Part shown: positions 34,723 through 64,000 of the stretch, one piece after another
How the letters are laid out: the number at the start of each line of letters is the position of its first letter
Numbering within the stretch: the first letter of the stretch is position 1
Source of the DNA: a phage
Reading direction: 5' to 3' (one strand)
Sequence record: PZ347661.1
DNA length: 64,000 nt
The notes under the pieces: generated by a model
Told to the model about the DNA's origin: nothing
Database searches by the model: none
What the model saw: the letters and a program-made list of their open reading frames with translations, nothing else
Translations under genes and position numbers: made by a program

Positions 34723-35144
34723 TATCGTGAAGGGTTCTGTTAGAATCCTTTGAGATAGGAACTCCTATCATAACCTTTCTTAACTTAATCTTTGCCGTAT
34801 GGCACTGACGCTAGGGGTGGCCCCCCATCCGTCAGGTAGACTATTTTAAGAATGGGTTATCACAGCAAATGTAAAGCAACATTCGGGTTAATCAATGGCC
34901 TCTCCCTATAGGGGCCATTTCTGAATCTTAGGCTATATCCCAAAGGTTAATATCTTTGGGATAAGGCTTCAGATCCCTTATCAACTAACCGCTCAATGTT
35001 GAGCATTTTAATCACATAAGCCCCTATATGGGCTGGGTTAAATGTCGGATAGCATAGCTACCTACAGCATCGAATTGTTAGGTCTTACATGCAAACTAAA
35101 TCATAGGGTAAAGAGGGACTCGTCCTCCCTCCCCTATTATAATG

Positions 35145-35214
35145 GTCGGGGTAGCGCGTAGGCATGTGCAGAAGGTCGCTACTTCTCTCGCTGGTTCGAA
35201 TCCAGCCCCCGACC
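35145..35214 (+). tRNA. tRNA-like element A (about 70 nt, isotype undetermined)
   Basis: 7-bp acceptor pairing GTCGGGG/CCCCGAC, U8-A9, T-arm GCTGG-TTCGAAT-CCAGC, possible anticodon stem AGAAG/CTTCT; hand fold leaves a short variable loop; no encoded CCA. Confidence 0.4.
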
Positions 35215-35765
35215 TACTGACATCCTATCAATGAGTACATTAGGCTAACGTGCGGAGGTTTACACTGTAGCCGGTGTAGGTGGAGAAGACGGCAGGATAG
35301 CTACCTGTGCTTAGTGTACTCTTTGATAGTTTTCGTAAGCGATTATGCGGTTTTTTAGAAACGAACCAATAACATAAATGCAAACGATGATGTTGTTCTG
35401 ATGGCGGCGTAATAGCCTATAAGTCAGCAAGGTCTTCCGATTCCTTGTAAACAAATTCGGCGCAGTGGCCCGCTGTGATTAATAATGGGCACACAACAGG
35501 TAAGAGCATTTAGGCTACTGAGAAATCATCCGAGGCAATCAGACCTATCTTCTGTTAAGTGCTCTTTCCGTTGTGGTGAATGTGCAGGCTGATGCGCAGT
35601 GGGACGTGGCTGACTCACGAGGATGGCTCAAGCGAATAAGCAAGCTCGACGCCGCCGAATAAGCGCCTTATGCCGGAGATCAGTACCGGCCACCACAACA
35701 AGTCCAGACGATATCTGAGTGACTATAAAAACAGATGGAGCCAGGTGGAATCCCTGGCAACTAAT

Positions 35766-35831
35766 TCCGGTGTAGGTACTAGTGTCGTGCACGGCATGAG
35801 TGTTCTGGTTCGAGTCCAGACGCCGGAACCA
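35766..35831 (+). tRNA. tRNA-like element B (only about 63 nt plus encoded CCA; non-canonical)
   Basis: Acceptor pairing TCCGGTG/CGCCGGA (one G-U), T-arm TCTGG-TTCGAGT-CCAGA, discriminator A and CCA encoded; too short for a standard D plus anticodon arm. Confidence 0.3.
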
Positions 35832-35833
35832 AT

Positions 35834-35957
35834 TACCAGTTGCACGAGATGGCTTGATATGTTCAAGTTTGGACTAAGTGTGACACCGCTAGATTGGAGA
35901 GCTGCTGCGGTAAGCTATAGACTCCAACCGGGGGTTCGAATCCCTCACTGGTAACCA
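35834..35957 (+). tRNA. tRNA-like element C (perfect 7-bp acceptor pairing spanning about 121 nt; possible insertion)
   Basis: TACCAGT at 35834 pairs with ACTGGTA at 35947; T-arm GGGGG-TTCGAAT-CCCTC; discriminator A and CCA encoded; internal length exceeds any standard tRNA. Confidence 0.3.
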
Positions 35958-36401
35958 ATTCAAAGTAGCATTGCACTAATCCATCCCGGAGTTCAAAGGC
36001 CAAACATGGAGCAGTGCTACTTTGAATTAGAAAGATTATGGGGGTAAGTCGTAACCATACGACGGCGTAAGTACCAGATGAGACTTCTGGACGCCCCTAC
36101 CAGATTTGGGGTGTAACAGTTAGATCCAGTTGCCGGAAGTGCTATTCTAGATACGCTGCCAATGTGTGAACGGTAAGGCTGTACAGGACTCGGACTCCCA
36201 CCTCAAACCAAAGTCGCCAGGTACTTATGGCAAACGGGTAGTAACGAACTAGTCATTCGTCAAACGCCCAACCTATTATGAGTCAGCAAGAACGCCTTCA
36301 CTTAAACTTAAACAAAAAAGCTTAACGCAATAATTATGTAGGGGTATGTAAGGATTGCGAAGAAGGAGCCAGTTAAAGTCTGGCATGGCTCAACCTATTA
36401 T

Positions 36402-36475
36402 GCCCACTTAGCTTAGACAGGGAAAGCAACCGACTAATAATCGGAAGGTCACTGGTTCAAATCCAGTAGTGGGTA
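36402..36475 (+). tRNA. tRNA candidate D (74 nt cloverleaf, anticodon uncertain)
   Basis: Acceptor GCCCACT/AGTGGGT (G-U first pair), D stem GCTT/AAGC, anticodon stem CCGA/TCGG with loop CTAATAA, T-arm ACTGG-TTCAAAT-CCAGT; the hand fold gives an unusual AAU anticodon. Confidence 0.45.
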
Positions 36476-36791
36476 CTTATTTGCTGCAATATTCCCATAG
36501 GGAATGGTGCCGTATACGCCACCTAGTTTCTGGTGAAACTCCAGATGCAGCAATCCATTCAGCAGTAACATAGTCCTGATTGCATTGCACTCTAAAGACA
36601 ACACTGGTAAGACAGTCCAGTGACTGCTAATGTACTGTTATTCCCCTCGACGGGAATTTCGCTAGTGAAGGTAACACTTAAAAATCCAAACCTACGTCTT
36701 ACTACTATCGGGCTATCAACCCACAGTCGCTTAACACACTAGTGGTAGTAGTTTGACGGCCTAGCCTCGTTAGCTGCGTTAAAGCTACTAA

Positions 36792-36817
36792 GTCCCTCTT
36801 CGGAGGGACTTTTTTAT
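36792..36817 (+). terminator. intrinsic terminator
   Basis: AGTCCCTC-TTCG-GAGGGACT followed by TTTTTT. Confidence 0.7.
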
Positions 36818-36986
36818 TTGAGTATTAATAAATGGATATTCAGGATGATTGACCTAATTTCTACTCCGTATGCCTATGAGGTAACGGATAACCGAGGACA
36901 TAAGTACTTGGTATTTGCAGGTAGCGTAGCCTATAACAACGCAGTAATGTTTAAGTACAAACTCAAACCACTCTATGAGGCTAATA

Positions 36987-37367
36987 ATGGCAACAGTAAG
37001 TAAAGAAGCAATCGAAGCTAAGATTAAGAGCATTTACTTTTTCAATGGTGCTGACGCAGTGAAGTCTGCATTCGTTGATCCATCTGCACTTCCAGCAGAT
37101 GATTTGGCTAACCTGGGTCTGACAACTCATTGCATTATCATCCTGGAAAATGGATTCAAAGTTGAAGGCGTATCCGCCTGCGTAGACCCGGCTATCTATG
37201 ATGAGCAAAAAGGTCGTCAGTATGCATATGAAAATGCATTCAATAAGATTTGGGAATTAGAAGGTTATCTGCTACGTCAGGCACTGCATGAGAAAGAAGA
37301 GACTGCTAAAGCTCTGGCTTCCTTTGCAGAAAACAATACCTGTGATGGTGGTGGTTGTACAATCTGA
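36987..37367 (+). CDS. hypothetical protein (126 aa)
   Basis: ATG with GAGG RBS. Confidence 0.5.
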   Translation: MATVSKEAIEAKIKSIYFFNGADAVKSAFVDPSALPADDLANLGLTTHCIIILENGFKVEGVSACVDPAIYDEQKGRQYAYENAFNKIWELEGYLLRQALHEKEETAKALASFAENNTCDGGGCTI

Positions 37368-37486: not shown

Positions 37487-37978
37487 ATGTCAGAAGAAAT
37501 TAAAGTCCATTTCACCAATTATATCGGAACCAAGTGTGTAAATGGTTTCCCGATGAACAAAGAAACATACTGCAAACTTCGTGGCTGGAATGTACCTGCT
37601 AAAGAAGACCCACTAGAAGAAGGTTATTTAGTCGAGTACCCAGACTCTAAGTCCAACCATCCTCAGTTCCGTGGCTATATTAGCTGGTCACCTAAAGCTG
37701 CATTCGAAGCTGCATACCATGACGTAGAAAAAGGTTGTACCTTTGGTCATACAGTAGAGCTTCTCAAATCAGGCTTCAGAATGACCCGTAAAGGTTGGAA
37801 CGGAAAAGGAATGTATATCACCTTAGTATCTGGTGAAAATTGGGCCATGGATAAACATGAAAATACCGTTTGTGAGAAACGGGATTGGCTGGGTATTAAA
37901 ACCGTTGATAACCAGTTTATGCCATGGGTTCCATCTCAATCAGATGTATTAGCAGAAGATTGGGTGTTAGCTCAGTAA
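37487..37978 (+). CDS. hypothetical protein (163 aa)
   Basis: ORF with GAGG RBS; last + strand gene before the strand switch. Confidence 0.55.
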   Translation: MSEEIKVHFTNYIGTKCVNGFPMNKETYCKLRGWNVPAKEDPLEEGYLVEYPDSKSNHPQFRGYISWSPKAAFEAAYHDVEKGCTFGHTVELLKSGFRMTRKGWNGKGMYITLVSGENWAMDKHENTVCEKRDWLGIKTVDNQFMPWVPSQSDVLAEDWVLAQ

Positions 37979-62653: not shown

Positions 62654-64000
62654 TTATGGCATTCTTATGATTCCAGTTATGTTATTAGGGGTTGCTGGCA
62701 AGGCTGTACCGCTGAATGTCAACTTCAAGAGTCCACCATTATTTGACGGTGTTATAGTTAAATTAGGTGCCGTCCCGTCTAAGTAAACAGCATCGTTATA
62801 TACGCGACCCCGCACCCGAATACCTTCAACCGTCAAGTTGATTAGAACAATCATATGCGGTCTAAAAGTAATGGCGGTATAGATAGCCCGGGTCGCAACA
62901 CCCTCATTAATCTGAGAGCAGAACGGTATAGTTGTGGAAGCATCACCTTGGTCACCACTAAACGGCAAATCTACTTTACCGCCGGTGAAGTTCTGACGTG
63001 CAATGAAATTACCAGACCCATCAAGCGCCACAGCAGGAAATACTATTTTCTCGAAACCAGAGAATGTCCACCCAGACGGAACCCCCGGCAGAGTGTTAAC
63101 CGATACCGCAGCAGGAGGAATGTTGACCGTTAAGCCATTCAGGTTTCCAGCATCAGTATTGAATTTGGTGGTGCAGTTCAGGAAGTACGTATTCTCACCG
63201 AATACACCAGAGCTTAACTGGTTGCCGTAGAAACAAGTATTTACGTTGTTAAAGAATCCACCAATTTTAACGGCTCTATGCGCTTGCGCCGCACCCATGT
63301 CAATGGCTACATCGGTGATATCTTCGTAGTAACCGTAAATTTCCAACGGCATTACTTCCCCGGTGAATACTAGCCCTTTATCACAGCTTTCAGCGTTCAC
63401 GAATTCAAGGCGCTGCCCGTTTATAGCGCCGTCAAAACGATACGCAAGTTTGCGCTGTGTAACGTTAATGTTATGGATGTTCTGCGAGTTGATATAGGTA
63501 TCAAACAAGAACGCCGGTTGTGTATGCGTTTTTGGTGCCGTCAGGTTTCGGGAAGTCATAGTATGGAACGCACCATACCAGCTTGACTTAGCAATTAGGT
63601 TTTGAGCACAATCCACGAACGTAATAGAGTGTAATTCGCTTGCCTCTGCAAAGTTCCGTACGCTAAAACCAATCCCTGCATTTCTTACGATGAAATTTCT
63701 AATCTTGGTTCCAGTTACGCGATAAGTATTATCTGCGAGGGCCACATTGCTCTCTAACACCCCTGTTGATGGGTTAAACCCACCAGTAACAAACATAGTA
63801 TTTGTACCATTTCCGACTAGTTCAGCGCCGTTCAGGTCGATGTCTACCATGGCAGGAATGATGATGGGGGAGCTGCCGATTACGTTAAATCGACCACCCC
63901 TTGATGATACTTTGCGGATGCCTTGTTTCATAGCATCAGCGTAGACATCGCCACTTATTCCATTACCAGCAGCTTTAACTGCATCAGCAATAGCTTGTGT
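62654..64000 (-). CDS. tail protein, partial (N-terminus lies beyond the window end)
   Basis: Reading frame stays open from the first Met at 63931 to the window edge; Asn/Gly/Thr-rich repetitive sequence typical of fibre or beta-helix tail proteins. Confidence 0.55.
   Translation of the reverse strand, partial: TQAIADAVKAAGNGISGDVYADAMKQGIRKVSSRGGRFNVIGSSPIIIPAMVDIDLNGAELVGNGTNTMFVTGGFNPSTGVLESNVALADNTYRVTGTKIRNFIVRNAGIGFSVRNFAEASELHSITFVDCAQNLIAKSSWYGAFHTMTSRNLTAPKTHTQPAFLFDTYINSQNIHNINVTQRKLAYRFDGAINGQRLEFVNAESCDKGLVFTGEVMPLEIYGYYEDITDVAIDMGAAQAHRAVKIGGFFNNVNTCFYGNQLSSGVFGENTYFLNCTTKFNTDAGNLNGLTVNIPPAAVSVNTLPGVPSGWTFSGFEKIVFPAVALDGSGNFIARQNFTGGKVDLPFSGDQGDASTTIPFCSQINEGVATRAIYTAITFRPHMIVLINLTVEGIRVRGRVYNDAVYLDGTAPNLTITPSNNGGLLKLTFSGTALPATPNNITGIIRMP

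Follow-up and report, generated by a model that had tools for sequence, protein, structure and literature searches.

A candidate non-decoding tRNA-like RNA in the tRNA cluster of an N4-like coliphage

We analyzed a 64,000-nucleotide (nt) stretch of phage DNA (sequence record PZ347661.1; hereafter the window), which comes from an N4-like coliphage of the genus Gamaleyavirus, and describe here a 124-nt element, unit 2 (35834-35957, + strand), located in a cluster of transfer RNA (tRNA) genes and noncoding RNAs. The comparative evidence, consisting of covariation, conservation and a broken open reading frame (ORF), shows unit 2, at the level of sequence, to be a real, selected and structured RNA gene. 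We consider it reasonably likely that its product is a stable, non-decoding, tRNA-derived RNA of ~121-124 nt, which would be excised in the manner of a tRNA and in which the invariant interior would be the working part.

Unit 2 has the ends of a tRNA and no anticodon arm

A sequence-only reading of this stretch had pointed out that TACCAGT (35834-35840) and ACTGGTA (35947-35953) are exact reverse complements of each other, that a T arm (35930-35946) precedes the second of these strands and that an A (35954) and CCA (35955-35957) follow it, all of which was confirmed, coordinates included. Its estimate that a 7-mer would find such a partner by chance ~1% of the time agreed with our count, in which an exact partner 50-160 nt downstream was present for 539/63840 positions (0.84% of the window); given this background, the acceptor-pair match alone is weak evidence. 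The parts of unit 2 are as follows.

35834-35957, + strand: unit 2, the complete gene of the tRNA-like RNA, 124 nt with its encoded CCA
35834-35840, + strand: acceptor 5′ strand UACCAGU (nt 1-7), which pairs with 35947-35953
35841-35880, + strand: D-arm-like region, with U8, G9, a stem, G13·A44 and an expanded loop
35851-35869, + strand: inserted 7-bp hairpin of the D loop (nt 18-36), with covarying pairs
35881-35893, + strand: 13-nt linker UGACACCGCUAGA at the anticodon-arm position (nt 48-60), near-invariant
35894-35927, + strand: 34-nt irregular arm (nt 61-94), 2 nt 5′ of the T stem
35930-35946, + strand: T arm, GGGGG-UUCGAAU-CCCUC, 5-bp stem, with a covarying pair
35947-35953, + strand: acceptor 3′ strand ACUGGUA (nt 114-120), complement of 35834-35840
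35954-35957, + strand: discriminator A and encoded CCA, read directly from the sequence

The canonical tRNA features found in unit 2 are the acceptor stem of 7 base pairs (bp), the discriminator, the CCA and a T arm with a 5-bp stem and 7-nt UUCRANY loop, in a molecule of 124 nt as compared with a tRNA range of 70-95 nt. The D-arm-like region has a predicted 3-bp stem (CAC/GUG, 35843-35845 with 35878-35880; nt 10-12 with 45-47) together with U8, G9, G13·A44 and G38G39, all of them invariant, and its 30-nt loop contains the hairpin insert, after which the GG is found (35871-35872; nt 38-39). The linker UGACACCGCUAGA is invariant save for G59U in one metagenomic sequence (present in two collections). 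No 5-bp stem with a 7-nt U33 loop is present where an anticodon arm would be and, because it has no anticodon arm, unit 2 cannot read codons.

The 34-nt arm is made up of UUGGAG/CUCCAA and AGCU/AGCU with a 9-nt loop and a 5-nt bulge, and is predicted both by minimum free energy folding and by RNAalifold. It includes the 6-bp hairpin previously noticed 5′ of the T arm (TTGGAG, 35894-35899, with CTCCAA, 35922-35927), and is sequence-invariant except for A67G, where pairing is retained as G·U. An alternative 5-bp helix (35885-35889 with 35907-35911; nt 52-56 with 74-78) may form instead of this arm. The arm occupies the position of the class II long arm, 2 nt before the T stem, and the earlier suggestion of an oversized variable arm is thus plausible.

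Compensatory changes and an invariant core across 13 versions

Homologues were gathered by BLAST against phage records and by scans of IMG/VR and metagenomes, giving 13 distinct versions, all from Gamaleyavirus or from the group of Klebsiella phage KP8. Scans of IMG/VR and metagenome sequences with sub-patterns of the core returned just N4-like contigs and chance matches in unrelated ORFs, and on these sequences the family appears to be confined to the Enquatrovirinae.

We tested a six-helix structure on the 10 versions in hand before the metagenome scan (alignment A2). Across the six helices 99.7% of cells were paired, compared with 27-49% when the 3′ partners were slid by 1-3 columns, and RNAalifold independently yielded the same helices. 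The closing helix was 100% paired across 10-13 distinct copies, with double compensatory changes at three of its seven pairs (C3-G118 to U-A, C4-G117 to U-A and A5-U116 to G-C); in another copy, this stem contains a G2·U119 wobble. Compensatory changes were also found in the T stem, where pair 99-111 changes from G-C to A-U in 7/10 sequences, and in the D-loop hairpin, where pair 21-33 changes from U-A to C-G, pair 18-36 occurs as G·U, A-U or G-C, and pair 24-30 occurs as A-U or G·U. The core (nt 38-97; 35871-35930) was variable at only 2/60 columns, compared with 19/64 elsewhere in the element (Fisher p = 7e-5; p = 0.002 once the stretch fixed by the search pattern was excluded), and unit 2 as a whole is kept between Gamaleyavirus and KP8 despite rearranged neighbours. 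The proposal that this stretch encodes a larger tRNA-like RNA therefore stands, in that an acceptor stem, T arm, A73 and CCA have been maintained by evolution in an element of ~124 nt. A candidate protein-coding ORF over the region (35670-35954, 94 amino acids) was rejected as spurious; it is interrupted by stops in Bp4 and KP8, and its substitutions are all non-synonymous.

Each copy of unit 2 starts 2-4 nt past the CCA of a preceding element that ends in a stem and ACCA. Phage PE007, which is otherwise 98% identical to the window phage, misses exactly 126 nt, namely unit 2 and the 2-nt spacer before it (junction ...GGAACCA/ATTCAAAG), and the repeat AACCAATT is present at both junctions. Unit 2 plus its spacer behaves as a discrete cassette. 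A fusion of unit 2 to the upstream element, the 66-nt unit 1 (35766-35831), had been raised as a possibility and is contradicted on three counts: unit 1 has its own ACCA, the order of the two is opposite in KP8, and PE007 keeps unit 1 without unit 2.

Several observations weigh against a functional RNA with a working interior. The core conservation is partly ascertainment-biased, since some copies were retrieved by core-derived patterns. The cassette is dispensable, and PE007, N4 and IME11 are without unit 2. Folded as a single sequence, unit 2 is no better than shuffles (z = -0.96). Pairing in the D-like stem and the 34-nt arm comes solely from energy models; both are invariant and therefore have no covariation support. 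The core gave no match of ~20 nt or more (E <= 10) in E. coli genomes, no excess of complementarity to host transfer-messenger RNA (tmRNA; z = -1.55) and no complementarity beyond chance to either strand of the window. Finally, the CCA is replaced by TCA in two metagenomic sequences (L144/L283; L277).

These UCA ends could also be taken as signs of a decaying pseudogene, that is, a former class II tRNA gene that has acquired insertions and is drifting without function. Consistent with such an origin, both ends of unit 2 resemble the tRNA-Ser of N4, tRNA detectors fail on it and several relatives do without it. Drift, however, predicts the opposite of an interior that is near-invariant across two phage genera with unalignable flanks, and three separate helices show compensated stem substitutions. 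We therefore regard a pseudogene as very unlikely.

Unit 2 falls outside the tRNA, intron-containing tRNA and tmRNA families

Since defining features of each family were looked for and not found, unit 2 is outside the tRNA, intron-containing tRNA and tmRNA families. ARAGORN, run on the window, found tRNAs only at 35144-35215 and 36402-36476 and none at unit 2. Rfam was searched with sequences of 64 kb, 3 kb and 276 nt, both at the gathering score and at E <= 10, and the tRNA model RF00005 (threshold 29 bits) did not match unit 2 even at E <= 10 on the 276-nt stretch. Scores of tRNA covariance models below noise, together with the absence of transcript ends at 35834 or 35957, are what the sequence-only reading had said would count against an RNA at this position; the first half of this outcome, the low scores, was indeed obtained, yet the comparative evidence shows a structured RNA gene. 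A decoding tRNA was rejected on these failures of detection and on the missing anticodon arm.

The location in a tRNA cluster and the presence of an acceptor stem, T arm, A73 and CCA are what would be expected of a decoding tRNA that carries an intron or another removable insertion and matures to a normal tRNA, as had also been suggested. We found, however, no anticodon stem halves around any segment, and, whichever segment is deleted, a 5-bp anticodon stem capped by a 7-nt U33 loop does not result; the sole loop with U33 and a purine at position 37, CUGCGGU (35905-35911), caps a ~10-bp stem. The ~45 extra nt are too few for a group I intron, with its core of ~200 nt or more, and no Rfam intron model matched. 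Group I is, to our knowledge, the only self-splicing intron type in bacterial tRNAs. Moreover, the extra sequence is the most conserved part of unit 2. An intron-like insertion is accordingly a most improbable explanation.

Assignment to the tRNA-like domain of a tmRNA was likewise rejected. The 3:70 pair is C-G in seven sequences, U-A in two and, in the reverse orientation, U·G in one, and never G3·U70, and there is no tag-like ORF inside unit 2. The Rfam model RF00023 matches the T arm only, scoring 12.4 bits where the gathering score is 47. Two same-sense 10-11-mers at 63079-63114 were considered as matches to the core and dismissed as chance, being inside a 425-amino-acid ORF.

Genomic setting and proposed mode of production

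The closest relatives of the window phage are PE007, nithesis, Bp4 and ECBP1. Unit 2 sits in a ~2.1-kb tRNA and noncoding RNA cluster without credible ORFs, which is bounded by a gp47-like gene and by gp48/gp49-like genes; the same unannotated gap is present in N4. A strong intrinsic terminator on the same strand (36790-36811) closes the cluster downstream of unit 2. In relatives, the unit 2 stretch is either unannotated or covered by small 'hypothetical protein' ORF calls, and other odd elements of the cluster carry the label 'tRNA-OTHER'. The elements other than unit 2 are listed in order.

35144-35215, + strand: weak tRNA-like call, first in the cluster
35325-35701, + strand: tmRNA-like tag template, second
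35702-35765, + strand: pseudoknot-like module, third
35766-35831, + strand: unit 1, 66-nt tRNA-like element ending in ACCA, fourth
35832-35833, + strand: 2-nt spacer AU after the CCA of unit 1, which with unit 2 makes up the 126-nt cassette
35958-36027, + strand: long hairpin after unit 2, with further conserved modules next
36402-36476, + strand: canonical tRNA-Ile(AAU), the last element listed

Because the copies of unit 2 start 2-4 nt past a CCA, the cluster resembles a polycistronic precursor that RNase P would cut at every tRNA-like 5′ end, with trimming back to the CCA. We propose that unit 2 would be transcribed within a ~2.1-kb cluster precursor ending at the terminator, that RNase P would cut its 5′ end 2 nt past the CCA of the preceding unit, the same cut setting the 3′ end of the upstream RNA, and that exonucleases would trim its 3′ end back to the CCA. 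The tRNA shell would then act as a natural 'tRNA scaffold' that provides precise ends and stability, the parts kept from a class II tRNA being those that processing enzymes read, and the invariant core (35871-35930) could serve as the working surface for a host or phage partner.

A simpler possibility is that the fold is punctuation only, recruiting RNase P to cut the noncoding RNA precursor, thereby forming the 3′ end of the upstream RNA, and leaving an excised RNA that has no function. Unit 2 always adjoins the CCA of an upstream element, which in PhAPEC7, Mimir124 and KP8 is the 3′ microhelix-ACCA of the tmRNA-like RNA, and punctuation could also account for a dispensable cassette. Yet it needs the acceptor and T helices alone, whereas conservation in unit 2 is highest in the 60-nt interior, a part not read by RNase P, and the PE007 junction works without unit 2, with a plain hairpin next. 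We think this alternative unlikely.

If unit 2 is instead an RNA with a working interior, more specific roles can be imagined. That it is charged by a synthetase that ignores the anticodon, or titrates a host factor that reads the acceptor ends or elbows of tRNAs, we consider quite unlikely. A73 and an intact elbow are features used by E. coli leucyl-tRNA synthetase on minimal substrates. Were such a role true, unit 2 would be one tool of a phage kit for rewiring host translation quality control, the second tool being the neighbouring tmRNA-like RNA, with its own tag and a 5′ end antisense to host tmRNA.

A neighbouring tag-template RNA with complementarity to host tmRNA

The second element of the cluster (35325-35701, + strand) gave a weak match to the Rfam permuted-tmRNA models, in the tag region only (31 bits, compared with a gathering score of 47). 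Its tag ORF (35380-35412; GCA AAC GAT GAT GTT GTT CTG ATG GCG GCG TAA) encodes ANDDVVLMAA followed by a stop. Homologues of this tag-template RNA were found in ~800 phage records from unrelated families (N4-like phages, Felixounavirus, Kuttervirus, Klebsiella/Shigella siphophages and Erwinia phages) and in 198/5426 complete E. coli genomes. The one prophage copy that we examined, in O26:H11 strain 11368, is located between the Q antiterminator and holin genes of a lambdoid prophage, and none of the copies inspected is annotated as an RNA gene.

The 15 distinct versions of the tag all keep the 10-codon frame A-N-[D/E]-x-x-x-L-[A/M]-[A/V]-A, with synonymous changes and all three stop codons represented, and an overlapping AUG frame is not kept; conservation of the tag frame with synonymous changes is therefore evidence that the tag is translated. 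The stop codon lies within a hairpin, and two apparent H-type pseudoknots come next, the first of which shows compensatory changes by eye. Visual inspection also picked out promoter-like hexamers in DS8, RCIP0103 and Felix-like contigs, from which the 5′ end would lie near AGUUUUCG; in DS8, a terminator-like hairpin follows ~0.77 kb downstream. A search of 29 loci for a cis partner, either a tRNA-like domain or a complement of AGUUUUCG, found none.

The conserved 5′ segment of the tag-template RNA (35325-35370, + strand; L152:531-575 in DS8) is antisense to nt 54-108 of E. coli K-12 tmRNA (ssrA, L154), a region that comprises the 3′ strand of pseudoknot 1, the resume codon and tag codons 3-6. 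The block UAGUUUUCGU pairs at 10/10 positions with ACGAAAACUA (host tmRNA nt 97-106), which are host tag codons that differ from the phage tag, and is not complementary to the phage tag itself. Around the resume codon, nt 87-91 pair with GCGAC, and UUUGCGGGUUUUUA pairs with nt 68-81 in the 3′ strand of pseudoknot 1. Predicted duplex energies were -35 to -49 kcal/mol, with z mostly -3 to -6 relative to shuffles. The same tmRNA target was found for 24/28 distinct versions, the Felix-like lineage reaching it via a different block, and the 11-12 nt that separate the duplex end from the resume codon of the phage are the same as the spacing between pseudoknot 1 and the resume codon in E. coli. We tentatively raise the possibility, suggested by these complementarities, that the tag-template RNA docks onto the tmRNA of the host, where it would mask the host tag and present a template of its own. 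Another interpretation is that it is simply an antisense inhibitor of host tmRNA.

We also considered whether unit 2 and the tag template together make up a split phage tmRNA, with unit 2 as the acceptor partner. The tag-template RNA has no tRNA-like domain of its own, and unit 2 lies 130-450 nt downstream of it in the same cluster in 12/13 of the unit-2 phages checked. Nevertheless, unit 2 does not have G3·U70, the universal alanine identity of tmRNA; no complementarity between it and the template RNA was found; Rfam tmRNA models match its T loop only, at 12 bits; and the template RNA is present in hundreds of phages and prophages that do not have unit 2. A split tmRNA therefore seems highly improbable, and we retain the reading of unit 2 as a separate non-decoding RNA.

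Compact forms of the tag-template RNA are found in PhAPEC7 (173 nt; L005:1335-1507) and KP8 (L006:1333-1500). They comprise the antisense 5′ segment, a tag (ANEEAYLMVA in PhAPEC7) and one pseudoknot-like element, and end in a 7-bp microhelix with a 13-nt loop and ACCA; unit 2 begins 2-4 nt later. The first pair of the microhelix covaries, being C1-G72 in PhAPEC7 and U1-A72 in KP8. In many loci, recurrent hairpin scaffolds flank the tag template (35493-35578 and 35570-35699, + strand, in the window). The X stem has the form ACAACAGGUAAGAGCAUU-[variable insert]-AGUGCUCUUUCCGUUGUGGUG and the Y stem GUUGUGGUG...CACCACAAC, with compensation, inside single hairpins, of AAGAGCA/UGCUCUU to AAUGGCA/UGCUAUU, AAUGACAC/GUGUCAUU or AAGGCAA/UUGCCUU, and some of the inserts bear T-arm-like GGUUCGAAUCC hairpins.

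A search of the literature found no description of unit 2 or of the tag-template RNA. Phage tmRNAs listed in 2014 were those of mycobacteriophages and Bacillus phage G only (PMC4131195), and the 2025 tmRNA database has 79 phage sequences (PMC11915505).

Other elements of the cluster and its flank

Unit 1 has a 7-bp acceptor stem, a short loop UAGGU, one hairpin, a T arm, A73 and CCA, a layout like that of a molecule consisting only of the tRNA-like domain of tmRNA, but without G3·U70. It is conserved in N4, and its hairpin and T stem covary between phages. The unit 1 sequence CCGGTGTAGGT recurs at 35271, upstream of the tag template.

In N4-like phages, unit 1 always has in front of it the 60-nt module seen here at 35702-35765 (GUCCAGACGAUAUCUG...GCCAGG-UGGAAUC-CCUGGC). 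In unrelated siphophages the module is found on its own, as in 9NA (L151), where it lies beside head genes, and inside the long tmRNA-like RNA of DS8 (L152). Its hairpin stem covaries (CCAGG, GCAGG, GUAGG), and a pseudoknot between the loop and the 5′ side, UGGA with UCCA, is possible.

The element at 35144-35215 (+ strand) was called tRNA-Ala(CGC) by ARAGORN and scored a sub-threshold 31 bits with the Rfam tRNA-Sec model. It has U3-A70 rather than G3·U70, U37 after the anticodon and no CCA, and, compared with PGN829.1, is a clean indel; this could be a further tRNA-like gene of a non-standard type. The tRNA-Ile at 36402-36476 (+ strand; 63.7 bits) has the unusual anticodon AAU. In pSb-1 (L010:1954-2041), the same tRNA-Ile acceptor, D and T arms enclose a 35-nt insert at the site of the anticodon arm, and this insert, CAGGAAAGCUUCGAGAGAACAAGGUGUCUG, recurs within the E. 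coli O26 prophage RNA.

The long hairpin at 35958-36027 (+ strand; AUUCAAAGUAGCAUUGC...GCAGUGCUACUUUGAAU) begins immediately 3′ of the CCA of unit 2. Analogous long hairpins follow each tRNA-like gene in N4 and KP8, some with T-arm-like tips. A ~100-nt noncoding block at 36105-36205 (+ strand; GGGGUGUAACAGUUAGAUCCAGUUGCCGGAAGUGC...) is near-identical in N4 (L004:2425-2530) and, from this similarity, looks like another conserved noncoding RNA module of the cluster. The genes just 3′ of the cluster include one for a Phage_gp49_66 protein (36975-37367, + strand), and a protein with a Tad2-like (Thoeris anti-defence 2-like) domain is encoded at 37487-37978 (+ strand); with this gene downstream, the cluster borders an anti-defence gene.

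Discussion

Unit 2 is a lineage-restricted accessory RNA gene, probably tRNA-derived. Phage annotation uses tRNA finders that demand an anticodon, and RNAs of this kind are missed. Unit 2 indicates that the tRNA genes of phage clusters can be converted into scaffolds bearing other RNA modules, and the existence of presence/absence variants (PE007 and the window phage), together with the sharply bounded invariant arm, makes its role testable. The tmRNA-like RNA beside unit 2 may matter more than unit 2 itself; if confirmed, it would be a new route by which phages interfere with ribosome rescue, and the cluster seems aimed at the translation-rescue machinery of the host.

With regard to origin, a covariance model of unit 2 scored 152-157 bits on members of the family, exceeding 150 bits only on homologous copies, and its best hits outside the family were class II tRNAs (N4 tRNA-Ser, 28 bits, and two 88-nt class II tRNAs of Klebsiella phages). 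The T-arm junction CCGGAGGTTCGAATCCTTCAC is identical to N4 tRNA-Ser at 20/21 positions, and the 5′ motif TTG-NNN-GAGA(T)GGC corresponds to the D arm of the Ser-type class II tRNAs found in N4 and in other phages. Judging from these matches, unit 2 probably descends from a class II (Ser-type) phage tRNA. It shares with N4 tRNA-Ser (L004:1729-1818) U8-G9, a predicted 3-bp D stem, a D loop with GAGA..GG, an encoded CCA and an extra arm directly 5′ of the T stem. In contrast to that tRNA, unit 2 is without an anticodon arm, has a 19-nt hairpin in the D loop and an arm of 34 nt rather than ~16 nt, carries A73 with U1-A72 in place of the Ser-type acceptor, and is undetected as a tRNA.

By architecture only, the closest analogue of unit 2 would be T4 species 1 RNA (rnaC, 139 nt), which with species 2 RNA (rnaD) belongs to the stable RNAs of the T4 tRNA cluster. 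We take these two to be the only classical example of such scaffold-type RNAs, and rnaC is, according to older literature, processed like a tRNA. Like unit 2, rnaC comes from a phage tRNA cluster, is in the range of 120-140 nt and has no anticodon arm. Its T arm is canonical (CCGGG-UUCGAAU-CCCGG), and the terminal stem after it closes around two long hairpins. Unlike the perfect 7-bp stem of unit 2 with its A73 and CCA, this terminal stem is imperfect and lacks an encoded CCA. Searched against the T4 region (L153), the unit 2 model gave no rnaC or rnaD hit at E <= 10 and matched T4 tRNA-Leu only.

The DS6A-type derivatives of tmRNA, which retain the tRNA-like domain only, also mimic an acceptor and T arm without decoding (PMC4131195; PMC11915505), an example being that of mycobacteriophage DS6A, and a molecule of this type is reported to inhibit tmRNA, perhaps via titration of SmpB (PMC4131195). 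These RNAs are ~65 nt long, derived from tmRNA and equipped with the alanine identity pair, whereas unit 2 is 124 nt, probably class II-derived and without G3·U70; the 66-nt unit 1 is nearer to them in architecture.

Engineered tRNA scaffold chimeras (Ponchon, Dardel) carry a cargo RNA in place of the anticodon arm. Their shell gives the insert RNase P processing, a CCA end and nuclease resistance, which is the working principle that we propose for unit 2. Such chimeras are alluded to in PMC3401473. The scaffolds are artificial, and unit 2 differs in also having an altered D loop and a cargo nearer the variable-arm position.

Salmonella phage Vi01 has a 147-nt tRNA-like element (L014:706-852) with a perfect 7-bp acceptor stem (UGCGGUG/CACCGCA), a D-like stem, a ~85-nt insert, a T arm, A73 and no CCA, located directly upstream of the Vi01 copy of the tmRNA-like RNA. 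Thus tRNA shells with foreign interiors are found elsewhere in related clusters, in the Vi01 element, the tRNA-Ile shell of pSb-1 and T4 rnaC, and by analogy this suggests that phages habitually load RNA modules onto tRNA frames.

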